From Saccharolobus solfataricus (GTDB lineage Archaea; Thermoproteota; Thermoprotei_A; Sulfolobales; Sulfolobaceae), in contig NZ_LT549890.1 of the NCBI RefSeq assembly GCF_900079115.1, forward strand, positions 390,001 through 422,000: a DNA stretch of 32,000 bases. Direction: 5' to 3'. The stretch's first letter is position 1. The number at the start of each line of letters is the position of its first letter. The translations under genes and the position numbers were made by a program. The notes under the pieces are model-generated. The model was not told where the DNA came from. It ran no database searches and saw only the letters and a program-made list of their open reading frames with translations. This document shows positions 7,943-24,671 of this stretch, one piece after another.

Positions 7943-8103
7943 TGCTTCACTGCTAATATCGTTTCAATTGCAAATAAAACTATTGAAATCCCAACAAGGG
8001 TTATCTTCACAGCTCTATCTGCCTCACTTTTGATAATTTCATACAAACCGTATGGGAGCATTAAGAATCCTATAATTAATAGTATTTCCTCTACTAATAT
8101 CAT
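7939..8103 (-). CDS. unlisted 54-aa predicted membrane mini-protein
   Basis: My own translation: [54 protein letters not shown], with two hydrophobic helices. Its TGA overlaps the Fap7 ATG (ATGA), and its ATG lies 2 nt after the rhomboid stop. It is below the ORF-track size cut-off. Confidence 0.35.
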
Positions 8104-8379
8104 AATTATTTTATTGTCCTTCCACTCCTTATAAGGTAATAGACAACTGCGTACATAATACCTCCCAAAATACCTCCGATATGAGCAACAACGTTCACAT
8201 TAGGGAATATTAAATCACTAACTCCAAATACTGATACTAAAAATACAAGACCATAAACCCCTAGATTATCCTTTTTTAAGAAATCGTAAAACGTGTAGTA
8301 ACTTAATAATCCAAATATTCCCCCAGACGCTCCCGAGCTTAGTGTAAAAGGACTATAGAATATTACAGTTAGTAGATTT

Positions 8380-8397
8380 CCAGTGGTGTTTCACCAA
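8380..8397. repeat. IS terminal inverted repeat (left)
   Basis: CCAGTGGTGTTTCACCAA is the exact reverse complement of 9803-9820. Confidence 0.85.
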
Positions 8398-8599
8398 ATT
8401 ATTTCATTTGAAAGATATAATATTAGTCCTTTCAAAAAGAGATTGATATAGAGAAAAACAATAAAATTATTATGAAACATAACATGTTAAAATAATTTGC
8501 AAAAAATATAGCGTACAATTCTAATAATAAGAGGAGAATTCTGAATTTTTCTCACGTGGTGAAAACGACGTGCATAGTCTCCTCTGAACACCGAGAAAG

Positions 8600-9565
8600 T
8601 TAGAGAAGCTTGACGAATGAATCGAAGGACAAAACCTTCTTACACGTGGACTTGAAGTTAAAGAGAAGATGATTCACTAGATTCCACGCAGAATCCAGAA
8701 CCGTGTAATAGAGGAACAAGAAGATCTTATTACTCAACTTCCTAACATACCTTATCCTTGCCTTCCTAACCTTAAAACCCTCCTCAACTTGCCACCTCAA
8801 CCTATAGAGTTCAGCCAGTTCATAGGGATCTCCCTCGAAGTTCGTTACGAACATGAAGTGCCTCGGCTTCCCCTTAACGTAAACCACATCGTAATAATAA
8901 AGCCCTTCAAATTTCAAGACCCTATACGCAACGTAAACCCTGTCCTTAACCTCGTATCTCTTCTCAACTAATGGAACGTTAGATAGTTCCTTGAATCCCT
9001 TCAAGTTCGACTTTCCTCTCACAATGGTCTTCACGGGCATTTCCTTGATGACCCCTAGGTTCAAGAATCCGGCGTCAGCTACAACGTAATCTATTTCCAT
9101 GTATTGGCTTACTTCCCTCACGCTCCTGAGTAGGAACTGTGATGGACTGTCGCTTCTCAAATCTGCTACCTCCACTAGGAGGGGTAACCTTAAGGGATAT
9201 ACGAGGTCCAAGGATCTCATCTTTACTCCTTTTCTCTTCCAGTTGTAGAGTAGAAAGCCCTCTGCTTTTTCTTGTTCCTTTTCTCCCACGGTTAATCCGG
9301 TCTCATCTACAGCGACTACGTTGATCTCTCCCTTTACTTCTCTGTAGATTGGGTAGAACTTGAAGGTTCTCTGACCTTTACTAATTACTTTCTCGCCTCG
9401 TCTTACTACCTTCAAGTAGTATTTTCCTCTGTTTCCGGTTAGCAAGGATGGTGCTGCTTTCACTATTTCCGGGTCTAGATCTTGAGAGATAACGTTAATA
9501 TTGTTTGTTGCTAAAGTTATAGCGAGGGACTTCAGCTCCGTTTTGGGTAATATCATGGTTTGCAT
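8600..9565 (-). CDS. IS4-family DDE transposase
   Basis: 321 aa. Candidate DDE residues lie in AVDETG, VVADAGF and the C-terminal YRLRWQVEEGFKVRK, which fits the IS4-family Y-x2-R-x3-E-x6-K signature. Confidence 0.9.
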   Translation of the reverse strand: MQTMILPKTELKSLAITLATNNINVISQDLDPEIVKAAPSLLTGNRGKYYLKVVRRGEKVISKGQRTFKFYPIYREVKGEINVVAVDETGLTVGEKEQEKAEGFLLYNWKRKGVKMRSLDLVYPLRLPLLVEVADLRSDSPSQFLLRSVREVSQYMEIDYVVADAGFLNLGVIKEMPVKTIVRGKSNLKGFKELSNVPLVEKRYEVKDRVYVAYRVLKFEGLYYYDVVYVKGKPRHFMFVTNFEGDPYELAELYRLRWQVEEGFKVRKARIRYVRKLSNKIFLFLYYTVLDSAWNLVNHLLFNFKSTCKKVLSFDSFVKLL

Positions 9566-9802
9566 AACGGAGTTATGGAGTCCCTCGCTTTAACCTTTTC
9601 TTGTTCATCTCGTCCTTCCACCTACTTTCCTCTATTGATAATACTAGACAAATGGTATTACTCTTTATATATAAACTCGTTTTCTGTTAGTTTCTTCAAC
9701 AAATATGAAAATTTTTTGCTTCTTGTGTTGAAATAAGCCGATTTTTCTAACTCCGCTCTGATATTTTTCTCTTCCATAGAAATTGTATCATTTTGAGTAA
9801 AA

Positions 9803-9820
9803 TTGGTGAAACACCACTGG
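9803..9820. repeat. IS terminal inverted repeat (right)
   Basis: TTGGTGAAACACCACTGG is the reverse complement of 8380-8397. Confidence 0.85.
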
Positions 9821-10137
9821 TAGATTTCCTAGAATACCAGCTAGGATAAATATACCATATTCATGTTTTCCCGCTCTACTACCAAAAATTAAATATATAA
9901 CATATAATGAAATAAAATTAAATATAAAATCAACAAAGCTATTAGTTATAAATATTGATGTGAATAGTTCGTAATAATACCCTTTAATTACTAAGTAGTT
10001 TAATTGTTCTAGATAATATAATGAGGTAGAATCTATAAAAGTTGCTAATAAACCTACCATAAAACCCAAAGTAACAAGAAACATTAAGAAAAAAGTTGAT
10101 ATACCTATTATTTTTTTTATTATCACTTTATTCACCA

Positions 10138-10740
10138 TTATAGAAATGTTAGTGCGAATGCAATGATTATCAATACTGCCCACACTATCATGTTCCATCT
10201 AAAGATCTTTAATCCGTCTAAAACCCAGAATGGAAGCAAGTTAAAGAATGCTACCCAGAAGTTAAACCTAGCTAATTCAAAGAAAAATAAGCCAACAAGG
10301 CTAAAAGGCACTAACGATGCACCAATAAGGCCAACAAATCCTACTATTATGTTAGTTAGAGGTCCAGCTAGAGCTGTTTTTCCCTCAACGTCTCTATTAA
10401 GAAATCCACAAGATATTGATGTGTATCCCGAAAAGAAAACTAAGATACCTACGAAGCTACCAATTATATTCAGTATTAACGTTGTCCAAAACCCTGAAAA
10501 ACTTAAAGTAAATCTAGAGAAACAACCATATCTTCTCGCAGCTTGTCTGTGGCCTATTTCATGTGGTATTATAGCTAATAATGCTACGATATATGGTATG
10601 ATTATACTACCTATTGGATCTGAAAGTATTGATGTTGGGCGTATATAAGCTACTGCTAAAGATAAGGCAGCAAGTAAAAAGGAAGTGATCTCATTTAGGT
10701 TGGCGAATCTCCATTCTAAGTATCTTATATCCCAAGACAT
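10138..10740 (-). CDS. site-2 protease-type (peptidase M50) intramembrane metalloprotease
   Basis: 200 aa and polytopic. HEIGH sits in a TM segment, followed by the downstream FNLLPFWVLDG motif typical of the M50/S2P family. Confidence 0.85.
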   Translation of the reverse strand: MSWDIRYLEWRFANLNEITSFLLAALSLAVAYIRPTSILSDPIGSIIIPYIVALLAIIPHEIGHRQAARRYGCFSRFTLSFSGFWTTLILNIIGSFVGILVFFSGYTSISCGFLNRDVEGKTALAGPLTNIIVGFVGLIGASLVPFSLVGLFFFELARFNFWVAFFNLLPFWVLDGLKIFRWNMIVWAVLIIIAFALTFL

Positions 10741-10742
10741 AC

Positions 10743-11366
10743 CTATCTTATTAATCTTAACAACTCTGAGGGTATTAAATTATTGCTTACATATCGAATG
10801 TTTGTACTATCTATTTTCCATAATAACGCTTTTTTGTCATTACTGATGGTTGCCATGTAAATATTTCCACTTAAGTTTATTATCCCTTCAAATATTATGT
10901 CAAATAATCTTTTGAAGGAATTAAAGGTATCAAAGATTACTGATCTATACATAAATGGCATCGTAATTTTTAGACAAATATATCTTTTTGCTAAAATTTC
11001 AATTAAGTCCTTAGAGAAATCGTTATAGAGTTCAGGTCTCAATAACGTTATTTGCGCATTTCCTTCAACGTTTATAATTATAACTAACATTTTTCTTGTC
11101 TGATTAGTTGTGGATATCCATATCTCAAATATCCTTAGGACGTTCTCACACTCATCACTTATCTTTTTAGCTGGCAAGAAAAAAGAATAAGTTCCATTAT
11201 TTTGAGTTACAGCATCTATTAGTCCCTCTGCAAAAAGTTTCGATGAGACCCCTATTAAGGACAATTCCTTTTCAAGCGAAGGATTTAATTCTACTACATG
11301 CCCATCACTTGTAAGTACCTTTCTCCCTATACCTTGTAGGTAATCTACAGTGACTTCGAATCTCAC
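10743..11366 (-). CDS. hypothetical protein, first gene of the protease/Fap7/Mrp string
   Basis: 207 aa with no motif I recognise. Its stop lies 2 nt before the M50 start. A TATA-like TATATAAAAG (minus strand, about 11391-11400) sits about 26-34 nt upstream of the ATG. Confidence 0.55.
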   Translation of the reverse strand: MRFEVTVDYLQGIGRKVLTSDGHVVELNPSLEKELSLIGVSSKLFAEGLIDAVTQNNGTYSFFLPAKKISDECENVLRIFEIWISTTNQTRKMLVIIINVEGNAQITLLRPELYNDFSKDLIEILAKRYICLKITMPFMYRSVIFDTFNSFKRLFDIIFEGIINLSGNIYMATISNDKKALLWKIDSTNIRYVSNNLIPSELLRLIR

Positions 11367-11385
11367 AAAAATAAAATAGTGTACA

Positions 11386-11544
11386 TTAAACTTTTATATA
11401 TTTTGCGTATATCTCTGCATTTAATTCCATGTTCTTTGCCAATACTTTTTCGAGTACTTGTTTATCCTCAGCGGATGGATTATAATTCTTTATGATAGAT
11501 TCGATTTGTTCCAACAGCCTTAATACATCTTGTATACTTTCCAT
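11386..11544 (-). CDS. possible 52-aa helical mini-ORF (speculative)
   Basis: My own translation: MESIQDVLRLLEQIESIIKNYNPSAEDKQVLEKVLAKNMELNAEIYAKYIKV. Its 3' end contains the putative TATA box of the downstream gene, so it may simply be promoter/leader sequence. Confidence 0.2.
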   Translation of the reverse strand: MESIQDVLRLLEQIESIIKNYNPSAEDKQVLEKVLAKNMELNAEIYAKYIKV

Positions 11545-11571
11545 GATTTTACTTTATGCTTAATCTAAAAA

Positions 11572-14085
11572 ATGGTTACCAATGTAAAATTGGTATTTCC
11601 ACAATACTTTTTACTGTATATAAAGTCTAGGAATAATGTGAAGAATGGCCTTGTATCGTTGGTATTATGGTTATTACTGATTATGATATTATTGCATTTT
11701 GCAATTAAAACTCCTAGTTTATTTACGTATTCGGATTCCCCATTCTTGTCAAGCAGCGTACAAAGTGTAAGGGCTGATAAGATAGTAACCAATTACTTTC
11801 ACATTGGCAACGTTGATAATCTGTATATTATTATCAATTCCTCGTCTTATAACCAAGCTTTACAAGAAATTTATTCTAATTTATATCTCCTTAATAACGC
11901 TACGGTGATAACTCCCAACGGTTACGTTAGCATGCTTAAGACAGAGTATCTCAGCTACCTTGGCTTAAATGAGAAGAATTTCTCATCTACGATAAGCCAG
12001 TTGTATGAGAATTTGACTCGTTTGAAACTTTATTTAATTTCAAATTTTCAATACTTTGAATATCAGTTAAATATTACATTTGGTCTTCCACTTCATAATT
12101 TCACTAGTAACATATGCCCTACCTATAAGGAAAATTTTGATAAAGTTAATGGAAGTTTACTAGAGAAAGCTAGATATGCGGGATACTTAACCTTTAAAGA
12201 TCCATTTCTTTTCTACTTTGGATTTAATAATTACACTAATTACACTTTGGCATTAAAGTTTTTGATACAGTTTAATAACTACACTAGTCTAATCGAAAGG
12301 ATACTTAAAACTCAAAACATAACGTCTGTTAATGAAAGCAATGTGATTTTTAATAATATAACTACAGCCTTTAACTCATCCTTTCATAAGGGTACTTTAT
12401 GGCTTTTCATTATAAATGTTCCTAGCAATGAAAGCCTAACAAATATTAATCAATTTACTGAAAGTCTCAGAAACGCCTATGTAATAGGTCACCTAGCGTA
12501 TTATGCACAATCCGCATATTATACTCAAAGTAACGTTGAAATTATAGATATAACTACAATTATTCTTGTAATGATATTACTAATACTGTTAGTTAGATCA
12601 ATTGTTCCAATTCTGATTTTAATATCTAGTGCTGGTACTAGTCTTTTATTAGCTTATGGTCTCATGTACATGGAAACGCTTCTAGGTTATAAGATATATT
12701 ATATTTCGGGTTTGGTTGCACCTCCAATTGTATTTGGTCTTAACATTGACTATGGCATATTACTCATATATAGATATTTTGAAGAAATTAATAAAAATAA
12801 TTTAGATGCTCTCCTATATGCGCTTAAAAATTCAATAAAAGGTATACTATTAAGTGGTATTAGTATCACGATTGGGTTCTCCAGTTTTATCCTTTCCCCT
12901 TCTGCACTACTTCAAAACATAGGAATAGCGTTAGTGACATCTTCCATTTCAGCATTAATACCAGCAGTTTTCTTTACGTACACGTTATTGCTCTTAATCC
13001 CTCAAAGATATCTTAGTTTTCCTAGACGAAAATTACCGAGTATTACGGATATAAGGCAAAGGTACTTATATAAGCTTTCCAACTTTGCAGTAAGGCACAA
13101 TAAGTTATTAGTAATTCTTATGCTAGTTTCTATCGTTATCTTTATCTTTTATTTTCCTTCTATACACACCAACGTTAATATAGATGAAATATTACCTCCC
13201 CATGCAAATTCACTTGTAGGTACAAAGGTTCTTAATCAACTTTACAATTATAGTATAGACTATATTATATTGTATGGAAGCCCTAAGGCTAACTACACTC
13301 TCATTTATAATTTAACTAAAACTCTTATAGATCAAGGTAACTTAGTTTATGGACCAATGTCCTTAGGTTCTCAGATCATTGTCAATAATAGCAACTTATA
13401 TGATCACTTTCATCAAGGAAATTACACCTTGTTGATAATTTACCTAAAGTACCCTGTATTTAGCAATGGCGCTATAAATTTAACAAATTGGCTCATAAGC
13501 AAGGGATTCCTAGTTGGAGGGGATAACGCACAAAGAATAGATATCGTTAATAATACCGTTAGTACTTATTTTAGCTATACTTTACCACTTACTATAATTT
13601 TAATTGTCATTTACCTCTTCATGATTCTCGGATCTATTCTACTTCCCTTGAGGTTATCCTTAACTGTAGGTCTAAGCTCATTATTGGGAGCATTTACAGT
13701 GGCATTAGTATATAACTCGCCATATTGGCTATCCCCACTTGTAATTTTTGCCCTTCTTTTCAGTTTAGGTATAGACTATGATATGTTCATAATCATAAGA
13801 TTATTTGATGAGATGAAAAACGACGATGACATAAATAGTGCTATAGTAAGATCGGTAGAAAATACTGGATTAGTAGTAACTACTTGTGGTTTGATTTTAG
13901 CCGGAGCCTTTTTCTCATTGATGGTGGCAAATATGAGATTCTTACAAGAAATAGGTCTAGGTGTAGGAGTCTCAATACTGTTTGATACTTTTGTAGTTAG
14001 GCCTATTCTAGTACCTGCAATTATTTCAATTCTGAAAAAATATAATTTTTGGCCATTTAAGGCGAGAAAATTTCTTTATACTTAA
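11572..14085 (+). CDS. MMPL/RND-superfamily membrane transporter
   Basis: 837 aa. It has two 6-TM bundles, each preceded by a large extracytoplasmic loop. Duplicated hallmark motifs: GLNIDYGILLIYRYFEE and SLGIDYDMFIIIRLFDE. Confidence 0.85.
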   Translation: MVTNVKLVFPQYFLLYIKSRNNVKNGLVSLVLWLLLIMILLHFAIKTPSLFTYSDSPFLSSSVQSVRADKIVTNYFHIGNVDNLYIIINSSSYNQALQEIYSNLYLLNNATVITPNGYVSMLKTEYLSYLGLNEKNFSSTISQLYENLTRLKLYLISNFQYFEYQLNITFGLPLHNFTSNICPTYKENFDKVNGSLLEKARYAGYLTFKDPFLFYFGFNNYTNYTLALKFLIQFNNYTSLIERILKTQNITSVNESNVIFNNITTAFNSSFHKGTLWLFIINVPSNESLTNINQFTESLRNAYVIGHLAYYAQSAYYTQSNVEIIDITTIILVMILLILLVRSIVPILILISSAGTSLLLAYGLMYMETLLGYKIYYISGLVAPPIVFGLNIDYGILLIYRYFEEINKNNLDALLYALKNSIKGILLSGISITIGFSSFILSPSALLQNIGIALVTSSISALIPAVFFTYTLLLLIPQRYLSFPRRKLPSITDIRQRYLYKLSNFAVRHNKLLVILMLVSIVIFIFYFPSIHTNVNIDEILPPHANSLVGTKVLNQLYNYSIDYIILYGSPKANYTLIYNLTKTLIDQGNLVYGPMSLGSQIIVNNSNLYDHFHQGNYTLLIIYLKYPVFSNGAINLTNWLISKGFLVGGDNAQRIDIVNNTVSTYFSYTLPLTIILIVIYLFMILGSILLPLRLSLTVGLSSLLGAFTVALVYNSPYWLSPLVIFALLFSLGIDYDMFIIIRLFDEMKNDDDINSAIVRSVENTGLVVTTCGLILAGAFFSLMVANMRFLQEIGLGVGVSILFDTFVVRPILVPAIISILKKYNFWPFKARKFLYT

Positions 14086-15001
14086 CTGATATATTTATAA
14101 TCTTTTTTACAACATCTAATGGATCTCTGCCAAAAACATAAGTGTTGGCCTCAATACCAGTACCGCCCAAATGTATTACCACATCTGTACCTTCATCAAA
14201 TACTGCAGCTATTGTTTCGGCTATTCTTTCATTGCCTAGGTCGTTCTGAGGACCTACTTTCTTAAATTTATAGCCAATTTCCTTCAATATCATTTCCACT
14301 TTCTCATCATACTTGATATTCATAACTGACCTCACAGCGGGATGATTTTTCATCACTGATAATAGTACCTTAGCTAAATGCTTGCTTCCTCCCCACATTG
14401 GTTTAGAAGCAGGTGTTGGTAGGTTTCTAATTTTAGTTATTCTCCCTGGAATTGCAAGCACATCTTCTTCCCTCTTAGCGTTGGCTTTTGCAAAGGCTAA
14501 ATTGCTTAGAACTTCTGGGATTAATTCCGCTACAGACTCGTTTTGAAGCATTGATAGTGCAAGTTCCATCATTTCCTCTTCATTCTCCTTGTACAAACTT
14601 TTACAAATGTCGCAATCAACAGGAATTTCACTATCAATCATTTTGTGGTATTTACAGAATTTTAGCCTACTTAAATTGGAAAGGAAAAACACACTGATAT
14701 ATTGCATTACTTGTTTAGGGTCACCATTTATTAGTAATTGCGTAAGTTTATCTAGAAAATCGTCTATTTCTTCACGTGTTAATCCCAAATTCTGTAATCT
14801 TTTAATGTACGAATTTTCGTCTTCATCTAAGTATTGTTTCACTGCTGGTTGGCTAACTCCTAATAGATTAGCAATTCTCGTTTGACTCATATGTAGTTCC
14901 CTAAGTCTTTTAGCCTCTAATACCCTAATTGATGTTATGAATATGTCATCAAATATTGATAGTGGTGATTTTAGCACAATAGTAAGATTGAGATCAAACA
15001 A
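14057..15001 (-). CDS. transcriptional regulator: N-terminal HTH fused to a C-terminal ThiN-like domain (ThiR/COG1992-like)
   Basis: HTH: MSQTRIANLLGVSQPAVKQYL. A central Cys/His cluster follows (CKYH...CDIC). The C-terminal AIPGRI......P.WGGS.HLA...L.......R..MNI.Y......IHLGGTGIEANTYVFGRDP matches the ThiN pattern. The tracked start is TTG 15001. GTG 14977 is an alternative, and ATG 14890 would truncate the HTH. Confidence 0.65.
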   Translation of the reverse strand: MFDLNLTIVLKSPLSIFDDIFITSIRVLEAKRLRELHMSQTRIANLLGVSQPAVKQYLDEDENSYIKRLQNLGLTREEIDDFLDKLTQLLINGDPKQVMQYISVFFLSNLSRLKFCKYHKMIDSEIPVDCDICKSLYKENEEEMMELALSMLQNESVAELIPEVLSNLAFAKANAKREEDVLAIPGRITKIRNLPTPASKPMWGGSKHLAKVLLSVMKNHPAVRSVMNIKYDEKVEMILKEIGYKFKKVGPQNDLGNERIAETIAAVFDEGTDVVIHLGGTGIEANTYVFGRDPLDVVKKIINISVKYKEIFSP

Positions 15002-15695
15002 AAATTACTTTCTGAATAGAGAGTTAACGTTTGCCGCAATTGATGGAACCTTCTCTGACATTATTTTGGAAGGAGAGAAAGGAGGTTATATAGTAATAGG
15101 CATAATCAAAGGCAGAATATTTAAGGATTTTAAATTTACTATAGAAGATATTTCAGTTGATGATGAGCTGTGCATTTGTGAAGCAGAGAAGAGAATGAGA
15201 GAACTAGAATACTACAATATAAAGGAAAATGAAGTTGATCTAATATTTTTCGATAGAAAACTGTCATTTGATAAATCTTTAGGTATTTCGGTTCCTAAAA
15301 ATTCCATTGGAATTGTAAAGGATTTTGATATAGTAAAAAGAGAAAATTTGAACAATGTAGAAAACCCCCCTTGGCTAGTAATTAATGAAAAACATGATGA
15401 AACGATTTATGGATATTTTAAACTGTTTCCCTCCTCATGGGTATTCTACATAGAGTCTCAAGTTTTTGTAGAAAATCCGGAAGAATTGCTTTCTCTAATC
15501 TATAATCTAGGAAGGGAGCCAATACCAGAAGCTTTAGGGTATAATTATCCATTGTTTTTAGCTGATAAGTTAGTGAAATATTACAGAAATAAATTAAGCA
15601 AGTTCATAAATGTCACCAGTTTGCAAAGCAATATTAGATACAGAGAATTTAGAAGTTGGATTGAGAGATTAAGAAATGATGGAAAGTATTTTTGA
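14937..15695 (+). CDS. NurA-like nuclease candidate (compact)
   Basis: 252 aa. It has AAIDGT at residues 33-38, then AEKRMRELE, then LIFFDRKLS, which mirrors the order of the NurA acidic motifs. It overlaps the downstream HerA-like gene by 20 nt. The start is uncertain (ATG 14937/14943 or TTG 14988). Confidence 0.5.
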
Positions 15696-17424
15696 AGTAG
15701 AAGAGGGAAAGCTAAGAGAAGCCAAAATAATAACTAGGCAAACTTCTGATGGCAGGGGTACAATATCTTTTAGAAATTATATAGTAGAATTCCCCTTCTC
15801 GCTAAAGGATAAATTAGGTATAGGAAAATTGCTTGCTGTAAATACAATAAAGGAAAATTACTATCTGATTTTAGAAGTTGCAGATATTATTCCGATGCAT
15901 TATGGTATGATAAATCTGGACTCTACAATACCTAAGGAGATTAGAAATGAAATCATGAAAAAAGTTAGTGAAAGTTGGTATTCGAACGATGAGAAAGAAA
16001 TATGGATAGATTCAATAACTTATCCTTTGGGATATATTCTCGAAATAAATTCGAACAATATTCAATTTAAAAAAGGATATTTCCCACCTCTATTGGGTTC
16101 CTCAGTAAAGATTTTAAATAAAAAGGCGTATGCGTCATTTGTCTGTGCAAATAGTAATGTAAGTTTAGGAAACATTCTACATGAACAACTTTCTTTAGAT
16201 ATAAATTTAGAAAAAGCAATAAAGTATCACCTAGGTATTTTCGCTTTTACGGGCTCGGGTAAATCAAATTTAGCATCCTTGATAGCAAGAAAAGTGTTAG
16301 ATAACCTACCCGACACTAAAGTTGTAATATTTGACGTATCAATGGAGTACGCAATACTTCTCTTAGATAAGTTGCTTGAAGTTCCATCTAGAGTTATAAG
16401 CTTAGATAGAGTTCCCCCTAATCCAGCTGATGCGAGTAGAAAATTTTTAAGAAGTCACGTGATTCCTGACGACATTATAGATATTAGAGATAAGATAAAA
16501 AAAAGTGCAGAAATTCTACATCAAAATGGGAAAATGAAACAGTTATACGTTCCACCTGAAGGTTTTACTTACTTAACTTATGCCGATTTAATAGATCTAG
16601 TCAAAAAGCAGATAGAAGATAAATATACTGCAATATCGCAGAAACCACTACTCTATACTTTCCTAAGTAAGTTAGATAATTTCATGAGAGAAAGGAAATT
16701 GACAGTGGATGATATCATAGATGACTCTATTAATAATTTATTGGATGAAATAGAAAACTTAGGAAAAGATGCGCATTTAAAGGAGAATTCGTCACTGTTT
16801 ACATTTATATCTGGTATAAGAGCATACATCTCACTCGGCATCAGAGAAACTGAAGATTATGATATAGAAAATTTAGCGATTGAAATTTTGGATTCTTCCA
16901 GGGACTCACCTAGATTATTTATTTTAGAACTCCCTAACTTAGAAGAGGGAAGGCAAGTAGTTGCGACTGTAATTAATCAAATTTACAATAGGAGAAAGAG
17001 AATGTATTCCGACAATCCTAAAGTACTATTCATAATAGATGAAGCTCAAGAGTTTATACCTTATGATACCAAACAGAAAGATAAAAGTGAAGCCTCAAGC
17101 ACTGCCATAGAGAAATTGCTTAGACATGGAAGAAAGTATCACTTACATTCACTAATAAGTACTCAAAGACTAGCTTACCTAAACACTAACGCACTGCAGC
17201 AGTTACACTCTTACTTCATAAGCACACTTCCTAGGCCGTACGATAGACAATTATTAGCTGAAACTTTTGGAATTAGTGATATGCTCTTAGATAAGACCCT
17301 AGAACTGGAACCAGGGCAATGGTTATTAGTAAGCTTTAAGTCGGCTCTCCCTCATGATGTTCCAGTATTCTTTGCCGCTGAGAACAATCTAGATTTATTA
17401 AAGGATAGAATAAATAAGCTATGA
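15676..17424 (+). CDS. HerA/FtsK-clade (DUF87) hexameric ATPase paralog
   Basis: 582 aa. An N-terminal barrel-like region is followed by Walker A FTGSGKSN (nt 16246-16269), Walker [12 protein letters not shown] (nt 17023-17055), and a downstream LISTQR. Confidence 0.85.
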
Positions 17425-17688
17425 CTGTACTTCTATTTCTTCCAAATTTTGATCAGCAAAGGCCTTGTAAGAGCTCTTAGACATAATTAGAATTGTAAGG
17501 TTTATCTCATCAGTATGTTTGTATACCTCATCATAAATTGCATCTATTAGTTTAGACTTTTCTTTGCAATTAGCCGTTCTAACTATGATTAGATAGTATG
17601 CACCACTTTCATCTTTAAAAAGGTGAACTTCGCCATCTTTATTTAGTTCCCTTGCCTTCTTATATGCAGTCAGAATAGCGTTTTCCAT
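17419..17688 (-). CDS. hypothetical 89-aa protein, downstream partner of the SelB-like gene
   Basis: I recognise no motif. It lies 15 nt downstream of the 301-aa gene on the same strand, and its 3' end overlaps the HerA-like 3' end by 6 nt. Confidence 0.5.
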
Positions 17689-17703
17689 ATAATACTAATT
17701 AAC

Positions 17704-18609
17704 TTATAAACTAATATATCCAGCGACTCTTGGTTTTCCCTGTCTGACGTTAACGTTTAAGACAAGTATCCTATTGTCAACAATAGGTATTGGAACAGAT
17801 GACATAATCTTAGCTTTTTGATTATCGACTTTTATATTAGCTGCAATTCCATGACCCTTAACTATTATGTGATTTTGACCTTGATTTATAGTGGACCATT
17901 TGTAATTAGTTATTTGTCCTTCTATTTCCTTTACAACCTTAACATTTGGCTTAACCAAATACAGTAAATCTTCTATTTCCTCTTCTTTTACGTTTTTCAG
18001 AGCAAACCCTATTCTAACTCCGGTTGAAACACTCTTTTGATCCTCATCTAAAACTTGAATACTCTTTATTTCAACCTCCTTATTATAAGGTAACGCCACT
18101 AATTTCTCATGAACTTCAACATTGGTAAATGAGAATCCAGTAACTACGGTTCCAACACCTTTGACTGTGAATACTCTATCTACATATACTATTCCCTTAT
18201 CCTCCTCTTCGGTCTCGCTTAAGTCTGGAATATCATTATATAGATCGAATTTAGTAAAGGAGCTTAAAGAGCCTAAAATATTATTTATTTTACCTTGATC
18301 TAAGTTGGATATTACTATCTTGTTATGCGTATTTAGAGAATCAATTAAAAGTGCTAGCTCTCCATCCATCCACGTTAAAGTTTCTGGTATATATAATATT
18401 GCAGTCGACGAGAGTGATAATGCTTCAGCTAAATCTATAATTTTTTCCGGATACTCTGTAGTCAATAGGATTGATCTAATGTATTCCCCCTTTTTTCTAT
18501 AATATATTTTTGTCTTGGCGGTTTCATGAAGCTTACCTAGTTTTTCGGCTATCCCAGTTAGTTTATTCTTATCTGACGATAAGACTGTAATTATACTCCC
18601 GTAATACAT
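17704..18609 (-). CDS. EF-Tu/SelB-like translation-factor paralog with degenerate G domain
   Basis: 301 aa with a conserved EF-Tu domain II signature (VDRVFTVKGVGTVVTGF ... GVRIGFALKNV). G1 is replaced by TVLSSDKNKLTG (no GK[ST]). G3 DxPGH is replaced by TTEYPEK. G4 NKxD is replaced by SNLD. Confidence 0.65.
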   Translation of the reverse strand: MYYGSIITVLSSDKNKLTGIAEKLGKLHETAKTKIYYRKKGEYIRSILLTTEYPEKIIDLAEALSLSSTAILYIPETLTWMDGELALLIDSLNTHNKIVISNLDQGKINNILGSLSSFTKFDLYNDIPDLSETEEEDKGIVYVDRVFTVKGVGTVVTGFSFTNVEVHEKLVALPYNKEVEIKSIQVLDEDQKSVSTGVRIGFALKNVKEEEIEDLLYLVKPNVKVVKEIEGQITNYKWSTINQGQNHIIVKGHGIAANIKVDNQKAKIMSSVPIPIVDNRILVLNVNVRQGKPRVAGYISL

Positions 18610-18629
18610 ACGCTCACCTTAATATAAAG

Positions 18630-18637
18630 TTTATAAA
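18630..18637. promoter_or_regulatory. perfectly palindromic TATA box (TTTATAAA) shared by divergent genes
   Basis: The box is centred 25-26 nt from both the ATG at 18609 (minus strand) and the ATG at 18660 (plus strand), in a 50-bp intergenic region. Confidence 0.5.
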
Positions 18638-18659
18638 GCTTATAACAAAAGATTAACAT

Positions 18660-18941
18660 ATGAAGTTAATTGCGGCTGGTCTCACATTAATATTTCTTGG
18701 TTTCATCCTACTCTTCCTAGGTGTAGTATTGCAAGTTCAAACTCCCCAGACAACTACTTCATCTTCTCCGCAATTCGCAGGATTAGTGTTATTAGGACCA
18801 ATTCCAATAGCCTTTGGCAATGTCCCACCATCGGTCTTAAGTAACCTAATTATAGTAGGTGTTGTATTTACCATAATAATGTTAATCATCTATTTAATAA
18901 TGTTTATAATTGGAAGAAAAACTACCAGAGCTCCATTTTAG
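18660..18941 (+). CDS. small archaeal membrane protein (DUF131-like)
   Basis: 93 aa with two TM helices flanking [10 protein letters not shown]. As far as I recall, this matches the GPIPI.FG core of DUF131/TIGR00304 proteins. Confidence 0.55.
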
Positions 18942-20029
18942 TTAGGAATTATTAAACTTCTTATTGCCTCTCCTTGCTCCAATAATTTTACTGCCTCGTT
19001 AATTTCTTCTAATCTGAACTTTCCAGTCACTAACGCAGTAGGGTCATATTTTCCCAATTTTACAAGTTCAATAAGTCTAGGCATATCTACTCTAGGCCTC
19101 CCTCCATAGTCTCCTATGATTTTAATACCCCCTCTAACTATACTTGCTATCCTAATTGGAATTTCAGCAGTAGTTGGAGGTAATCCCACTAGTACTACCT
19201 TTCCTCCTATTCTAACCATATCTAAAGACATTTTCACTGTTTCCGTAGTTCCTGCTACTTCTATTACAACATCCGGCCCTCCTCCAGTAATATTCTTAAC
19301 AGCTCTAACAACATCAGTCTCTTTAGAGTTAACTACATCACTAGCTCCTAGCTCTAACGCCTTTTCCAATTTCCATTTTCTAGTCCCGACTGCTATTATC
19401 CTTCCGGCACCAGCAATCTTTAACATCTGTATCACAGACAATCCTACACCGCCAACTCCAATTACAGCAACTGTTTCACCAGGCTCTATTTTAGCGGAAT
19501 TTACAGCACCATAAGCAGTTAAACCTGCACAACCCAATACTGCAACCTTTCTTAAATCCAAATCTTCCGGAACTTTAGTTAATGCAGTATAAGGTACCAT
19601 TGCGTATTCTGCAAATCCTCCTCCTAAAAATGCCCTTATCGGAGTTCCATCCTTAAAGTGTAATCTAGTTGTACCATCTAGTAATGTCCCATTTAGTCTA
19701 TTTTTCGCAAAGACTTCACATAAATTCTCCTTTCCCGTTATACAATTTTTGCATTTACCGCAGGGATGAATAAATGCTGATATAACCCTATCGCCAGGTT
19801 TAAAGTCTGTAACGTTATTTCCTACCTCCTCTATAACACCAGCTATTTCATGTCCCGCAATGACTGGTGGAGGGACTGGAGTTTTTCCTTCAAATACATT
19901 TACATCTGAATGACATAAGCCAGTTGCCTCAATTCTAATCTTTGTTTCACCTACCTTAGGTTCATCTATTTGAATATTATCCTCAATAATTAATGGCTCA
20001 TTATATTTATACAATATTGCTCCTTTCAT
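18938..20029 (-). CDS. adh: zinc-dependent alcohol dehydrogenase (MDR family)
   Basis: It has GLCHSDV, a structural-Zn Cys cluster ([15 protein letters not shown]), and the Rossmann motif GVGGVGL. The start is set at M9 (20029) because TTTAAATA (minus strand, 20060-20053) lies about 27 nt upstream and would cover the 20053 ATG. Confidence 0.9.
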
Positions 20030-20052
20030 TAGTATAAGGTACAGTATAATCA

Positions 20053-20060
20053 TATTTAAA
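20053..20060 (-). promoter_or_regulatory. TATA box for adh
   Basis: TTTAAATA on the minus strand lies about 27 nt upstream of the ATG at 20029. Confidence 0.4.
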
Positions 20061-20078
20061 CATTTCTAAACATCTCCC

Positions 20079-20085
20079 TTTATAA
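20079..20085 (+). promoter_or_regulatory. TATA box for xpb
   Basis: TTTATAA lies about 27 nt upstream of the GTG at 20109. Confidence 0.4.
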
Positions 20086-20108
20086 CTGCGAAAACTATTC
20101 ATTATATC

Positions 20109-21443
20109 GTGGTACGATTACGATACTTTAAATGTTTATTACTATCCGATTTTTCAGCTCCCGGTTTAAGCTGGAATGATGAGTTTAAGTGCTATATAGG
20201 CCAAGCAAACAAGTATCGAGAAGTCCTTTATTACTATAAGAGGTCTCACGTTGAAGTTGAGGATAGCGTCCTAGAGTTATTACCTTTTCCTTTGATTGTA
20301 GATCGAATAAAATTAAGGGAATATCAGCAAGAGGCTTTGAATGCATGGTTAAAGAGTAAGCTAGGGATAATAGTGATTCCCACTGGAGGTGGAAAAACTG
20401 TAATAGGATTGAAGGCCATAGCTCTGATTAGGCTTGCTACACTAATAATAGTGCCTACAATCGATTTATTACAGCAATGGTATGAAAATATAAGAGAGTT
20501 ACTTGGAGTTGAGGCGGGGAGGGTAGGGGGAGGATATGATGAACTTAAGGGAATAACCGTAATTACGTATGATTCAGCGTACACTCAGCTAGAGAAAATA
20601 GGAAATAAATTTGGATTAGTAATTTTTGATGAAGTTCATCATCTACCTTCAGAAGGATATTCCATAATAGCTCAAGGTTTAGCTGCCCCATATAGATTAG
20701 GCTTGACTGCTACGCCAGAAAGAAGTGACGGAAGACACAAACTGTATCCATCACTCGTTGGGCCCTTAGTATATAGGATTACAGTTTCTAACCTAGTCGG
20801 AAAATATCTTTCAAGTTTTGAAATTCAACGTATATACGTAAATCTCACTGAAGACGAAGAGAAATTATATAGGCACTATAGAGGAATCCTAAAGAAATTT
20901 TTATCTCAACGTAATCTTAAGTTAAAGTCATTGAATGATTTCAATAGGCTACTTAGGCTAGCAGTTAAGGATAAGGAAGCTAGAGAGGCATTATTAGCAT
21001 GGCATGAAGCTCTCAAGATAGCTGTAAATTCCAAGGCAAAGTTAGAGAAGCTTAAAGACTTGCTCAAGGAGCTAAATGGTGAGAAAATTATAATATTTAC
21101 TAGAAATACGTCAATGGTATACGAGATATCAAGACTATTCTTAATTCCTGCAGTTACATACAAGACGAATAAGCAAGAAAGGATAGAGATTCTGGAGAAA
21201 TTTAGATCTGGAAAATACAATGTAATAGTAACTTCTAGTGTCCTCGATGAAGGTATTGACGTTCCAGATGCTTCTATTGGTATAGTTCTAGGAGGTTATG
21301 GAACCTCTAGGCAATTCATACAGAGGTTAGGTAGAATCTTAAGGAAGAAAGAGAATAAAAAAGCTAGATTGATAGAAATAATAACTAAAGGTACTAGTGA
21401 TTATAATTTAAGTAAAAGGCGAAGACAAAATGCTAACCTCTGA
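20109..21443 (+). CDS. xpb: XPB/Rad25-type SF2 DNA helicase
   Basis: Helicase motif I is VIPTGGGKT, motif II is IFDEVHH, and motif III is GLTATPER. A short N-terminal damage-recognition-like domain is present. The GTG start is supported by the TATA spacing. Confidence 0.9.
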   Translation: MVRLRYFKCLLLSDFSAPGLSWNDEFKCYIGQANKYREVLYYYKRSHVEVEDSVLELLPFPLIVDRIKLREYQQEALNAWLKSKLGIIVIPTGGGKTVIGLKAIALIRLATLIIVPTIDLLQQWYENIRELLGVEAGRVGGGYDELKGITVITYDSAYTQLEKIGNKFGLVIFDEVHHLPSEGYSIIAQGLAAPYRLGLTATPERSDGRHKLYPSLVGPLVYRITVSNLVGKYLSSFEIQRIYVNLTEDEEKLYRHYRGILKKFLSQRNLKLKSLNDFNRLLRLAVKDKEAREALLAWHEALKIAVNSKAKLEKLKDLLKELNGEKIIIFTRNTSMVYEISRLFLIPAVTYKTNKQERIEILEKFRSGKYNVIVTSSVLDEGIDVPDASIGIVLGGYGTSRQFIQRLGRILRKKENKKARLIEIITKGTSDYNLSKRRRQNANL

Positions 21444-22887
21444 TCTAGCTAGGTTTAAGATAGAAAATCAGAGGATAATTCCACTATTTGCTACAGATTC
21501 TGACATAGATGTAGCAAAGGAAGTCATTGACATGTTTAAAATAGGAGCAAAAGTTGGTGATATTCTAGAAGATTTAAAATATTTATCTAAAATATATGAT
21601 TATAAACTAGTCAAGGGATTAGGGAAAATTTATCTAAGATATTGTATCGTTGAAAGTGCGACTAAGATCGATTATATAGAATTGCGTAGGCAATTATTTA
21701 GTAGGGGTCCAGTATTAGAGGAGAACGATAAGGAGAGAGTATTAAAAGAGGTCGGTGACCTTTTTCACGTTGATCCCATAAAGGCTATGTATGAAGACCT
21801 TGACGTTGAAAAGAAAATAGTGGAACTCCCTAAATTTTCTCCAGAAGATCTATTAAAAATATATAATCTTTCCCTTTTGCAAACCATTATTTTCAACGCG
21901 TATAAGGTTACAGTTTCCGTTAGTGATGGCTGGAAAGAAATCGCGAGAAGAATAAAAATGCTAGGATTAATGTATTTAGCGTATGAAAATCCGCTTAGAA
22001 TAGAGATTTTTGGTCCATTGTCCCTAGTAAAGATGACAGAGAAATATGGGAGAAATTTAGCTGCATTAGTACCGTTTTTAGTCTCTAAGAATAAGTGGAC
22101 TATTATAGCTGATATAGTTTTAGGCAAAAATAAAAGAAGAACCTATAGACTGGAACTCTCGAGCGGCTATTCTAAACTCTTTAAGTATATTAATGATGAA
22201 GAGATGGAAAAGAGGTTTGATAGTTCAATTGAGGAAAAGTTTTACGAGGAGTTCAGAAGGGTCATAAGGGATTGGAATATAGTAAGGGAACCAGAACCTA
22301 TAGTGATAGAAAAAAGGCTTTATTTTCCGGATTTCGTACTTAGTAAAGGTAATATCAAAGTGTATGTAGAGATAATGGGATTTTGGACTAAAGAATATGT
22401 AAATTCTAAGATAGAGAAACTGAGAAACTTCAAATATCCGATTTTAGTTCTCTTGAATGAAGAGCTTTCATACGAAAATTACATACCGGATACTTTAAAT
22501 GTAATAAAATTTAAGAAAAAAATTGATATAGGTAAACTGTATTCAGCTTTAAGAGGCTTTCAAGCAAATGTTAACGAGGATATCGACTTAAGTGATGTTA
22601 ATGACGATATTATCTTGATTAAGGAGCTGTCTGCCAAATATAATGTTAATGAGAAGATAGTTAGAAGCAAGTTGATGCAAAGACCTGATTATATAGTACT
22701 TAAAAATTACGCTATAAAGAAAACGTTTATAGAAGAGCTAAAAAAGGAAGATTTCTCAAATACGCAACTTTCTTCATTAGTTAACAAATATGGAAATTAT
22801 ATAGTTGACATTATAGATTATCTAGGTTATAAAATTGTCTGGAAAAACATTTCCGATGCAATTGTAGAAAAGATCAAAGAGGTTTAA
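21430..22887 (+). CDS. bax1: Bax1 nuclease (XPB-associated, DUF790)
   Basis: 485 aa. It overlaps the xpb 3' end by 14 nt. The C-terminal restriction-endonuclease-like motif is YFPDFVL....KVYVEIMGFWTKEY. This is the canonical archaeal xpb-bax1 gene order. Confidence 0.8.
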   Translation: MLTSDLARFKIENQRIIPLFATDSDIDVAKEVIDMFKIGAKVGDILEDLKYLSKIYDYKLVKGLGKIYLRYCIVESATKIDYIELRRQLFSRGPVLEENDKERVLKEVGDLFHVDPIKAMYEDLDVEKKIVELPKFSPEDLLKIYNLSLLQTIIFNAYKVTVSVSDGWKEIARRIKMLGLMYLAYENPLRIEIFGPLSLVKMTEKYGRNLAALVPFLVSKNKWTIIADIVLGKNKRRTYRLELSSGYSKLFKYINDEEMEKRFDSSIEEKFYEEFRRVIRDWNIVREPEPIVIEKRLYFPDFVLSKGNIKVYVEIMGFWTKEYVNSKIEKLRNFKYPILVLLNEELSYENYIPDTLNVIKFKKKIDIGKLYSALRGFQANVNEDIDLSDVNDDIILIKELSAKYNVNEKIVRSKLMQRPDYIVLKNYAIKKTFIEELKKEDFSNTQLSSLVNKYGNYIVDIIDYLGYKIVWKNISDAIVEKIKEV

Positions 22888-24460
22888 AGGCTAACCTGAA
22901 TAACCAGTAGATCGCCTTTATCACTCCCGTCGTGTTATTGAGATTGATACTTGCGAAAGTGTACGCATATTTCCCTTGTGTCTCTTTTAGTTGTTTAAAT
23001 ACCCATTCAATGCTGTAGAATATTTTGTCTATCATGTATTGGACAGTCCTTTGAGCGAATTTGTTCTTGATACCTCCAGTGAGAATTGGTATCATCTCTC
23101 TCGTTATCTGTAAATCGTATTTCCACGATATGTATAGTACATCCCAATATCTGGTGGGCATTTTTTCTAACACTGGAAATGGATTATTTCTTATATAAGA
23201 AACTCCCATAGGTATGACCGGCAATGGGAATATCCAAGCTTTAAGTTTATGATCAATTATGGACTGAACTAAATCAATTGATTGATCAACATCTTCATTT
23301 GTCTCCTCTGGATAACCTATTGTCATAGTGTAACAAGGATAGATGTAATTATCGTTCATTATCGCAGTCGCATCAAGTATGACATCTTTCCACTCTCTAG
23401 GAGTCCAAGGGAATGGCTTTGCTCTCATGTACTTACTTAGTATCTTCTCACTTCCACTCTCTAGTCCAACCACTGGAGCAGCAGCTCTATCCTCATCATA
23501 TCTTGCAATCTCAGACATAGCCTTTACTGTTTGTGGACTACTTCTAACAGCTGGGGCAGAGATATGTGGAAACCATATCCCATCTACTCCCATATTCATG
23601 GTTTCGGTAAACAACTTTGTAATAGCTTCGTGATTTACCCTCAACTTCTGTGAACCGTACAGTAGGACATCATCAGTTATAAATTCAACCCTCTTTACAC
23701 CAGCCCTCATGTTAACTTCAACTTCCTTCTTCACAACGTCTAATGGTATCGTTCTAAAGGTTTCAGGGGTTATTGGACAGAATTGACATCCTCTTGGACA
23801 TCCTCTGGTTATTTGAACTTCCCCTAGTCTTGCAGGGTTTATTATTGGTGGTATTTCATTTACCTTTGGATTCTTGCCATAGACAACTTTAGGGACTTCT
23901 TGTCCATCAATTATGGATTTTACAACTCGTGGTAGATCTGCTTCAGCTTCTCCTATGAATATAACATCTGCCCAATCCTTATTCTCCTTGGTTAACTCCC
24001 AGCTCCCTGGCCCACCTACTATTACTTTAAAATTATACTTTGACTTAAGCTTCGAGATCTTTTCTCCAAATTCTTCGAAATATTTGGCTGTCCATGTAGG
24101 ACCACCTCCAAATATCATACTTAACTTAAAGCTAACTGGATTTAGGCCAAAGGGATCATGAACTGTTAATCCCACTACTTTAGTCTTCTGGTTTATTGCT
24201 TTCTCTAGTCTGTGCGGAGGTATTACTACAACGCTATCGAATCCCGCATGAACAAGCGTACTTTCTACTTTTCTAAGAGCGTACGGTGCTACTATTGCTC
24301 TTCCTTCAGAATCCACTGGGACATCTGGAGTGAAGAATCTATCCATAAAGAATTTGGGTATTAGTCTTGATGGCATGCAAGCTACATAACCTAATACACT
24401 TGAACCCCCATAATCTGTAAAAGACCCTTTATCCGCGGTTAATATGATCTCCCATGCCAT
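22874..24460 (-). CDS. radical SAM enzyme with an N-terminal B12-binding-like domain
   Basis: It has CxxxCxxC (RGCPRGCQFCPI) and an N-terminal Rossmann-like region (KVVGLTVHDP...KVIVGGPG). The start is set at M14 (24460) because TTTTATAG (minus strand, about 24492-24485) lies about 25-30 nt upstream. The tracked start is 24499. Confidence 0.85.
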   Translation of the reverse strand: MAWEIILTADKGSFTDYGGSSVLGYVACMPSRLIPKFFMDRFFTPDVPVDSEGRAIVAPYALRKVESTLVHAGFDSVVVIPPHRLEKAINQKTKVVGLTVHDPFGLNPVSFKLSMIFGGGPTWTAKYFEEFGEKISKLKSKYNFKVIVGGPGSWELTKENKDWADVIFIGEAEADLPRVVKSIIDGQEVPKVVYGKNPKVNEIPPIINPARLGEVQITRGCPRGCQFCPITPETFRTIPLDVVKKEVEVNMRAGVKRVEFITDDVLLYGSQKLRVNHEAITKLFTETMNMGVDGIWFPHISAPAVRSSPQTVKAMSEIARYDEDRAAAPVVGLESGSEKILSKYMRAKPFPWTPREWKDVILDATAIMNDNYIYPCYTMTIGYPEETNEDVDQSIDLVQSIIDHKLKAWIFPLPVIPMGVSYIRNNPFPVLEKMPTRYWDVLYISWKYDLQITREMIPILTGGIKNKFAQRTVQYMIDKIFYSIEWVFKQLKETQGKYAYTFASINLNNTTGVIKAIYWLFRLAFKPL

Positions 24461-24671
24461 AATATTATATTTTACTTTCCTACTATAAAAAGTATTCATT
24501 ATAGGGCGTATAAAAGAGTAATATTTAATTTATGTAAACTTTTTTATTGTATATAGAATTATACTAAAGCTTGGAACTATTACGTCTAATTACTTTTAGC
24601 TAGTTAAATGTAAACAATCTTACTATGTGAGAAAGTTAAAAAGGGAGGCATATAAATTAAATAATATTAAG

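Follow-up and report, generated by a model that had tools for sequence, protein, structure and literature searches.

What would a HerA-type ATPase do together with a NurA-type nuclease where neither Mre11 nor Rad50 is encoded beside them? The question arises from two overlapping genes in a 32,000-nt stretch of Saccharolobus solfataricus DNA (NZ_LT549890.1, positions 390,001-422,000). The whole of this stretch is called the window, and coordinates are positions within it unless another locus is named. The upstream gene encodes a compact 252-aa member of the NurA family, and the downstream gene encodes a 582-aa P-loop ATPase of the HerA clade (Table 1). An earlier sequence-only reading had described the two as a paralogous, functionally uncharacterised ATPase-nuclease machine outside the Mre11-Rad50 operon context, with roles in repair and in defence equally open. 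No mre11 or rad50 gene is present in the window, consistent with the placement outside that operon. The results presented here make it probable, with appreciable room for doubt, that the pair is a second machine of the HerA-NurA type, working independently of Mre11/Rad50 and taking an auxiliary or condition-specific part in genome maintenance.

The two open reading frames (ORFs) lie exactly where they had been placed from the sequence, and all six motifs named at that stage are found at the residues and nucleotides given for them. The ATPase frame is +1 relative to that of the nuclease, and the overlap between the genes is taken as a sign of their co-transcription. Translational coupling is likely as well, and a spacing of 2-5 nt separates the two genes at orthologous loci with annotation. 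The GC content of both genes is 31-32%, the same as that of the flanks, and the segment from 9820 to 27424 is 99.93% identical to Sulfolobus (Saccharolobus) islandicus Y.N.15.51 (CP001404.1, around 1.04 Mb). The true start of the nuclease is uncertain among three candidates (ATG 14937, ATG 14943 and TTG 14988), since residues 1-10 of its structural model have a predicted local distance difference test score (pLDDT) below 50 and the divergent ThiN-HTH (helix-turn-helix) gene most likely starts at 14977.

The 582-aa protein is assigned to the HerA-clade ATPases at the level of fold and profile. It passes the Pfam profile for the DUF87/HerA central domain (PF01935; 72 bits, cut-off 23.2), and its best PADLOC match, over the full length, is PDLC01055, 'HerA, type III coevolved' (7.4e-38, 128.6 bits; PADLOC sets no cut-off). 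The best sequence matches in the Protein Data Bank (PDB) cover short stretches at 36-46 bits, with S. solfataricus HerA (4D2I) matched at 44 bits over 110 aa. The AlphaFold2 (AF2) model of the ATPase (pLDDT 86.9) has the three-part architecture of HerA: residues 1-150 are beta-rich, as expected of a HAS-barrel, a RecA-like core begins at about residue 186, and a helical insertion occupies approximately residues 250-405. The top 50 PDB structures matched to this model by Foldseek are all HerA-family or HerA-like ATPases (E 1e-23 to 1e-19, 13-16% identity). They include DUF4297-HerA, Sir2-HerA and TdpA, and the best of them are the HerA proteins of T. kodakarensis (9X1M) and S. solfataricus (4D2I) with E about 1e-23. 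Alignments to these two and to bacterial HerAs are full-length, spanning 570-680 columns. Among 32 homologues with identities down to 39%, the invariant positions include G193, G195, K196, S197 and N198 of Walker A, D455 through F460 of Walker B, and T496, Q497 and R498, the last of which we take to be the arginine finger by reference to the FtsK-HerA superfamily. The Pfam score, the beta-rich N-terminus and the invariant Walker A/B and TQR motifs bear out the HerA/FtsK-clade layout that had been read from the sequence.

The 252-aa protein passes the Pfam NurA profile (PF09376; 38.9 bits, gathering cut-off 21) by an alignment confined to its C-terminal third (residues 125-214, equivalent to profile positions 173-253 of 254), and NCBIfam and PADLOC scans matched it to no family. 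Its relation to solved NurA structures is detected by fold comparison only. The AF2 model (pLDDT 85.3, predicted template modelling score (pTM) 0.80) proceeds from a long strand (residues 30-44) through two strands, a helix (83-93), a short strand (102-105) and further strands to C-terminal helices, and Foldseek identifies in it the RNase-H-like/PIWI-like fold of the solved NurAs. The top PDB match is NurA of S. solfataricus itself (2YGK_A; E 1.4e-8, query-normalised TM-score 0.52), followed by endonuclease V (EndoV), other NurAs, and then Argonaute PIWI domains and TdpB. The NurA proteins of D. radiodurans, T. maritima, T. kodakarensis and P. furiosus match at E <= 6e-4, and 7F6D_G, 1ZUP, 9X1N_G and 3TAI at E <= 4.5e-4.

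In an alignment of 42 nuclease homologues the invariant residues include D36, E91, D106, D112, K128, D129, P145, W146, E198 and D210. In the P. furiosus enzyme (PfNurA), a cleft between strands S1 (long) and S4 (short) holds Mn2+, with Asp51 and Asp126 as its ligands, and the site is completed by Glu105 and by His411, the latter replaced by Asp in T. maritima NurA (TmNurA) and in Argonaute (Ago) (PMC3300031). Compared by secondary-structure element, D36/E91/D106/D210 share the layout of Asp51/Glu105/Asp126/His411, and a PfNurA-type active site is predicted from this topological mapping, in which we infer the placement of D210. The NurA-like order of the acidic motifs D36, E91 and D106 proposed from the sequence thus stands, together with the fold and the acidic triad. 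The model, the profile match and the conserved residues identify the 252-aa protein as a NurA-family nuclease whose activity is predicted. It is also shorter than characterised NurAs, as had been suspected, the solved chains having 293-430 resolved residues.

The fold comparison also bears on a different assignment. The second and third Foldseek matches of the nuclease model, 3GA2 and 4XPU, are EndoV structures of similar size (208-237 aa), and 3GA2 gives the lowest root-mean-square deviation (5.2 A) and the highest target-normalised TM-score (0.52) among the significant matches. The spacing of D36/E91/D106/D210 presumably resembles that of EndoV too. On this basis the nuclease could be an EndoV-like or a structure- or lesion-specific endonuclease, with the ATPase delivering or remodelling its substrate, or the pair could serve DNA transfer in the manner of Ced/TdtA. 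For the latter, the ATPase has weak NCBIfam matches to CedB (NF041017) and CedD (NF053655), and a paper on a Thermus DNA-donation ATPase reportedly uses both the terms 'HerA-like' and 'NurA-like', which was counted in favour of transfer. We consider these alternatives decidedly unlikely. Pfam Endonuclease V does not match the nuclease at any E up to 1, its best structural match is the NurA of the same genus, and the Pfam NurA profile is covered almost completely (positions 4-253) by one of its longer orthologues (locus L007), which scores 19.4 bits, just under the cut-off of 21. The NurA-type motif at the C-terminus and the obligatory pairing with HerA likewise argue for NurA. With respect to DNA transfer, the CedB and CedD scores (28.7 and 44.4 bits) fall far below cut-offs of 700 and 600, and no membrane or pilus genes are conserved beside the pair.

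If the two proteins work together, their genes might be expected to be inherited together. A scan of one genome per GTDB species gave 526 loci encoding an ATPase relative. Of these the best 80 were examined, together with three further loci, and because three of the resulting 83 have no upstream sequence, pairing is counted out of 80. In 79 of the 80, the gene immediately upstream, on the same strand, encodes a nuclease homologue, and co-conservation of the two genes is accordingly well supported. The best 80 of the 526 loci come from Sulfolobales, with ATPase identities of 47-79%, and from Nitrososphaerota, Methanosuratincola, Marsarchaeota and other Thermoproteota, with identities of 34-42%. 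In Sulfolobales a divergent ThiN-HTH gene adjoins the pair in all loci examined and an MMPL transporter gene is present in most. Outside that order only the pair itself is kept together, which indicates that the functional unit is the two genes. Contigs carrying the pair with unexpected labels, probably mis-binned or mislabelled contigs of metagenome-assembled genomes (MAGs), were assigned to Methanobacteriota (L021, with Sulfolobales-type ThiN synteny), to a 'bacterium' (L040), to Desulfurococcales (L079, with Acidianus-like synteny) and to Omnitrophota (L080).

The length of the partner follows the same taxonomic division. It is 230-290 aa only in Sulfolobales and 480-650 aa elsewhere, and compactness is therefore a derived trait of the order rather than of the family. 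The long-form orthologues (among them L005-L007, L029 and L068) share full-length ATPase identity of 35-42% and the upstream position of the nuclease gene. They also share the motifs of the nuclease core, A[IV]DG[TS], EY, DR (as LLDR, around the equivalent of D106), KD, PW and EALG[YH]N[YF]PLFLADK. The long forms differ in an insertion of about 200 aa past the DR motif and in further insertions, so that the Sulfolobales protein corresponds to a stripped-down core. Most of them have no Pfam match. A nuclease profile search of 1.84 billion representative proteins returned 65 clusters, about 13 of them of the compact form. Long forms were matched only in their last ~70 residues, and few matches had the size of canonical NurA. 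The D210 motif is almost identical across phyla and is the sole matching stretch in most of the long-form proteins found. By eye, the insertion of about 200 aa looks like a winged-helix domain in L005 (4175-5998), L006 (4196-5995), L007 (4181-5998) and other long-form loci, for example LLKFAAVLELFGGESLTARDLVERLG. A second insertion precedes the C-terminal motif. The Sulfolobales proteins have neither of the two, and no Pfam family matches either.

The ATPase is not the canonical HerA of this organism, a point that the sequence-only reading had left to be checked. It scores 60.9 bits against the NCBIfam equivalog HerA_Thermprot (NF040937, cut-off 800) and 41.3 bits against helicase_HerA (NF040819, cut-off 970). 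Missing these cut-offs by more than 700 bits, together with separate archaeal orthologous group (arCOG) numbers and locus tags, distinguishes it from canonical HerA. The gene order in the window is exactly that of S. islandicus M.16.4 in the supplement of a transposon sequencing (Tn-seq) study (PMC6249222). There bax1 (M164_1677) and xpb2 (M164_1678) are followed by a DUF131 protein (M164_1680), a SelB-II domain protein (M164_1681), a small protein (M164_1682), M164_1683 and M164_1684, the ThiN regulator (M164_1685) and an RND/MMPL transporter (M164_1686) (PMC6249222). M164_1683 is listed as 'HerA helicase' (arCOG00283) and M164_1684 as 'NurA 5'-3' nuclease' (arCOG05927); both are flagged non-essential, whereas canonical nurA, rad50, mre11 and herA (M164_0062-0065) are essential (PMC6249222). 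The NCBI name of the small protein in the window is 'DNA double-strand break repair nuclease NurA', and so recognition of the pair as NurA and HerA is not new, both NCBI names and arCOG already having it.

Gene order also connects the ATPase to a published protein. In S. islandicus REY15A xpb2 is SiRe_1526 (PMC4471258), and since the five-gene offset from xpb2 is the same in REY15A and M.16.4, the ATPase corresponds to SiRe_1531 and, by gene order, the nuclease to SiRe_1532. Huang et al. (2017) equate SiRe_1531 with Sso0469, Saci_0435 and STK_01810 (PMC5682000). By gene order and names, then, the ATPase is Sso0469, known as 'SsoPK3', and a review table credits Sso0469 with Ser phosphorylation of casein, BSA, MBP and RCM-lysozyme in the presence of Mn2+ (PMC5007285). 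The description of the pair as paralogous and not characterised as a nuclease-ATPase machine holds, but the claim that it is uncharacterised does not hold in full: the genes were already annotated as NurA and HerA, and the ATPase has been assayed as a kinase.

This history raises the question whether the ATPase is primarily a Ser/Thr protein kinase in signal transduction whose resemblance to HerA is incidental. Besides the listed activity, several database records are named 'Protein-serine/threonine kinase', namely S. shibatae members of the 90%-identity cluster of the ATPase and the S. tokodaii homologue in UniRef. This label probably spread to those records from the 2004 report on SsoPK3; other records in the same cluster read 'ATP-binding protein' or 'DUF87'. 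We find a primary kinase role barely plausible. At E <= 1 no protein-kinase family in Pfam matches the ATPase, its fold is HerA throughout with all top structural matches being HerA, and a kinase role does not account for its strict pairing with a nuclease gene. SiRe_1531 showed no autophosphorylation, no kinase activity was reported for it among the eukaryotic-like protein kinases (ePKs) tested, and the authors regard it as a HerA paralog (PMC5682000). In the sister case of SiRe_0181/SsoPK2, activity needed the Walker A motif and not the proposed kinase motif. 'SsoPK3' thus has the fold of a HerA ATPase and an obligatory partner in the nuclease, and the link to that partner was not found in the indexed literature; nor did any indexed paper carry the plausible locus tags of the nuclease or either arCOG number. 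A more unusual combination, very improbable in our judgment, would be that the kinase activity is real and that a HerA-type ring loaded on DNA ends phosphorylates proteins, acting as a P-loop-based end sensor and signal transducer comparable to ATM/DNA-PK and conserved across Thermoproteota. In a milder version, the pair could be the main end-resection machinery in lineages that have no canonical operon.

A further alternative is a defence module against viruses or plasmids. In such a module a nuclease effector, activated by the HerA scaffold, would degrade invader or host DNA, as in Sir2-HerA, DUF4297-HerA and TdpAB. In favour of it stand the full-length PADLOC match of the ATPase to 'HerA, type III coevolved' and its scores against the NCBIfam anti-phage HerA families NF042943 and NF042944 (62.1 and 44 bits), the first of which is on a par with the 60.9 bits for repair HerA. 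The ATPase matches defence HerAs and TdpA structurally as well as it matches repair HerA, NurA-like TdpB is among the structural matches of the nuclease (8wfd_G, E 6e-3), the pair is non-essential, and overexpression of SiRe_1531 is toxic. However, all NCBIfam defence profiles remain far under their curated cut-offs (800 and 850 for the two anti-phage HerA families), and the nuclease matches no PADLOC model. Order-wide fixed synteny and the presence of the pair in several phylum-level lineages at 35-42% ATPase identity are unlike the patchy distribution of mobile genes. No CRISPR, toxin-antitoxin, integrase or other defence genes adjoin the pair in the window or in related loci. The ATPase profile found no relative among 2.9 million viral contigs. 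A tblastn search of 72,556 plasmids returned nothing for the nuclease and only distant fragments for the ATPase (~30% identity over ~22% of the query), and comparison of the nuclease model with viral predicted structures (Foldseek) gave generic RNase-H-like matches only. Phylum-wide vertical conservation, fixed synteny, housekeeping neighbours and the lack of relatives on viral contigs and plasmids together favour a cellular DNA-maintenance role over mobile defence, which we regard as unlikely. Repair and defence are therefore not equally open, as the sequence-only reading had it; the evidence tilts to the cellular role, and defence is kept as a rival.

How might such a machine operate? In the HerA family a hexamer translocates double-stranded DNA, whose strands are cleaved by a dimer of NurA bound at the barrel face of the hexamer. 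The NurA family is marked by a toroidal homodimer and by Mn2+-dependent 5'-3' exo/endonuclease activity. By analogy, the ATPase would form a ring, presumably hexameric, of subunits comprising an N-terminal beta-barrel, a RecA-like core with Walker A/B motifs and arginine finger, and a large helical insertion, and would pull double-stranded DNA through its pore. A minimal NurA-clade nuclease carrying D36/E91/D106 and D210, probably as a dimer, would be seated at the barrel face, where both strands of an incoming DNA end would be cut while the motor draws them in. The physical complex would in this way resect or degrade DNA ends in an ATP-driven reaction; its DNA substrate, polarity and physiological role we infer. 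Non-essentiality, vertical inheritance and the non-mobile context of the genes point to an auxiliary function in genome maintenance rather than to the essential machinery of resection or to mobile defence.

Several observations weigh against this account. Nuclease activity, DNA translocation and complex formation rest on prediction, and identity to solved HerA and NurA is just 10-16%. Compared with the PDB by sequence, either as a single sequence or as a 42-sequence profile, the nuclease has no match, and EndoV structures match its model nearly as well as NurA does. The protein is much smaller than the solved canonical NurA chains and does not have the large insertions of its own long-form orthologues, and elements for HerA docking or for dimerisation may therefore be missing. 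The sole enzymatic report on the ATPase calls Sso0469 a protein kinase (PMC5007285), and the pair is non-essential by Tn-seq (PMC6249222), which gives no phenotype that would tie it to DNA repair. Pairing also has an exception: in a Sulfolobaceae MAG (L022, JAWARQ010000005.1) the ATPase gene at 3992-5752, whose product is 47% identical, has no adjoining nuclease gene, and may represent a further paralogue or a locus from which the nuclease gene was lost or moved. The neighbours of this gene are Mrp/ParA-like and adenylate-kinase-like genes upstream and, by eye, a methyltransferase-looking gene downstream. Set beside these points is the growth phenotype of SiRe_1531 overexpression: growth was slowed, and the authors suggest interference with DNA metabolism by analogy with overexpression of HerA (PMC5682000).

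At the superfamily level the pair falls within the HerA and NurA families, and it lies outside the canonical repair, curated anti-phage HerA, Ced and kinase groups; it is no new kind of system. Its interest lies elsewhere. Sulfolobales are the main genetic model of archaeal DNA repair, and the canonical HerA-NurA there is both essential and difficult to study. A dispensable second machine of this type with a minimal 252-aa nuclease, conserved from Sulfolobales to ammonia-oxidising Nitrososphaerota, would be tractable. It could show how motor and nuclease are coupled where Mre11-Rad50 takes no part, and could reveal an extra genome-maintenance task needed by Thermoproteota. The analysis also corrects a label, since the 'kinase' SsoPK3 of databases and reviews is a HerA-fold ATPase with a nuclease partner. 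A search of the indexed literature did not find the Thermoproteota-wide conservation of the pair, the status of the Sulfolobales nuclease as a minimised form of a 500-650-aa protein, or the evidence that weighs a cellular role over defence for the pair.

The surroundings of the pair contain further features of note (Table 1). The probable start of the ThiN-HTH gene is GTG 14977, which lies 29 codons upstream of the Met that some annotations give. The additional residues (VLKSPLS...IRVLEAKRLR) complete the HTH and, like their start codon, are kept in nearly all of 13 other Sulfolobales loci. The regulator and nuclease genes would then probably overlap head-to-head by ~35-41 nt, which would place each promoter inside the coding region of the other; alternatively, the nuclease starts at TTG 14988. 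The genes for the 89-aa and 301-aa proteins downstream were considered as parts of the module and rejected, as they are not conserved beside the pair outside the genus. XPB2 and Bax1 form another helicase-nuclease pair nearby, also reported as non-essential (M164_1678/1677; PMC6249222). Their proximity, seen otherwise only in a close relative (L008), is probably not a functional linkage. Other genes in the window encode an AlaX-like protein, a class I (Trp/Tyr-type) aminoacyl-tRNA synthetase, Mrp/ParA, an alcohol dehydrogenase, radical-SAM enzymes and TatA/TatC. Farther upstream, a 1438-bp insertion sequence (IS) element at 8382-9819 interrupts a rhomboid protease gene relative to Y.N.15.51. 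It encodes a 321-aa DDE_Tnp_1 transposase (ORF 8600..9565, minus strand) and has terminal inverted repeats of ~17 bp (CAGTGGTGTTTCACCAA) and a 10-bp target duplication (GTAGATTTCC). To the left of the element (4228-8381) identity to Y.N.15.51 is 93.9%, compared with 99.93% to the right, and this drop suggests a recombination boundary.

Table 1. Positions of the gene pair, its predicted functional residues and neighbouring genes in the window (columns: feature, positions, strand, remarks).
NurA-family nuclease gene, compact	14937..15695	+	252 aa, 29.7 kDa, ATG start; ORF, Pfam NurA, AF2 model, arCOG/Tn-seq entry
HerA-clade P-loop ATPase gene	15676..17424	+	582 aa, 66.8 kDa, ATG start; ORF, Pfam DUF87, PADLOC HerA, AF2 model
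Gene overlap, nuclease stop/ATPase start (ATGATGGAAAGTATTTTTGA)	15676..15695	+	20 nt
D36 codon, AIDG motif (AAIDGT, aa 33-38)	15042..15044	+	Predicted first metal-binding carboxylate; long strand beta-1 (30-44); invariant
E91 codon, MRxxEY motif (AEKRMRELE, aa 83-91)	15207..15209	+	Predicted catalytic glutamate; helix alpha-1 (83-93); invariant
D106 codon, DR motif (LIFFDRKLS, aa 102-110)	15252..15254	+	Predicted second metal-binding carboxylate; just past short strand beta-4 (102-105); invariant
D210 codon, C-terminal helix motif	15564..15566	+	Predicted fourth active-site residue; invariant
Walker A, FTGSGKSN, aa 191-198	16246..16269	+	K196 at 16261-16263
Walker B, aa 450-460	17023..17055	+	D455/E456 at 17038-17043
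LISTQR, aa 493-498	17152..17169	+	Sensor glutamine and candidate arginine finger; R498 at 17167-17169
ThiN-HTH (ThiR-type) regulator gene	14057..14977	-	Head-to-head with nuclease gene; Pfam ThiN 176 bits; context only, functional link not implied
89-aa protein gene	17419-17688	-	No family match; converges on ATPase gene, 6-nt tail-to-tail overlap (17419-17424)
301-aa protein gene	17704-18609	-	Weak EF-Tu domain 2/SelB-II match, arCOG01564
XPB2 helicase gene	20109-21443		14-nt overlap with Bax1 gene
Bax1 nuclease gene (DUF790)	21430-22887		Helicase-nuclease pair with XPB2; pair lies 2.7 kb downstream of HerA-like gene

Comparison with known systems places the pair among several related arrangements. 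EndoV (3GA2, 4XPU) has in common with the nuclease an RNase-H-like/PIWI-like fold and a similar size, but the lack of a Pfam EndoV match, the HerA partner and the NurA-type motif near the C-terminus favour NurA. In the anti-phage systems Sir2-HerA/Nezha (8J4U, 8SUB) and DUF4297-HerA (8ZIQ, 8XAU), the HerA scaffold matches the ATPase structurally with E about 1e-20 to 1e-22; the partner in those systems is Sir2 or DUF4297, whereas here it is a NurA-type nuclease. TdpAB (8WFD/8WET), with which thermophiles defend themselves, senses the phosphorothioate modification of DNA. Like the present pair it consists of two genes, for HerA-like TdpA and NurA-like TdpB, and it works without Mre11/Rad50. Both of its subunits appear among the structural matches (TdpA at E about 1e-21, with TdpB far weaker), and the similarity is very low. 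In contrast to TdpAB, the pair has a core-like rather than patchy distribution, and the genes listed for the window and for related loci include neither dnd nor other defence genes.

In S. islandicus, additional NurA and HerA genes outside the mre11-rad50 operon occur at other loci as well. The nurA-herA operon SiRe_0094/0095 (SiL_0094/0095) is bound and regulated by Csa3a and linked to CRISPR adaptation; identity of the present pair with this operon was considered and rejected, the locus being different. The SiRe_0014-0017 cluster, again a different locus, also has extra NurA and HerA genes, the M.16.4 counterparts being M164_0014 (NurA-like, arCOG07312) and M164_0017 (HerA, arCOG00280), whose arCOGs differ from those of the pair. 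A further comparison is with canonical archaeal HerA-NurA (4D2I and 2YGK of S. solfataricus; the T. kodakarensis complex 9X1L-9X1N; S. islandicus SiRe_0064/0061 and M164_0065/0062), whose folds match those of both proteins. Canonical HerA-NurA and the pair have in common the order of catalytic residues, the Walker A/B and TQR motifs, and adjoining, co-oriented genes. The canonical proteins belong to arCOG00280 and arCOG00367, are encoded in the mre11-rad50 operon and are essential, whereas the pair described here, in arCOG00283 and arCOG05927, lies outside that operon and is dispensable.

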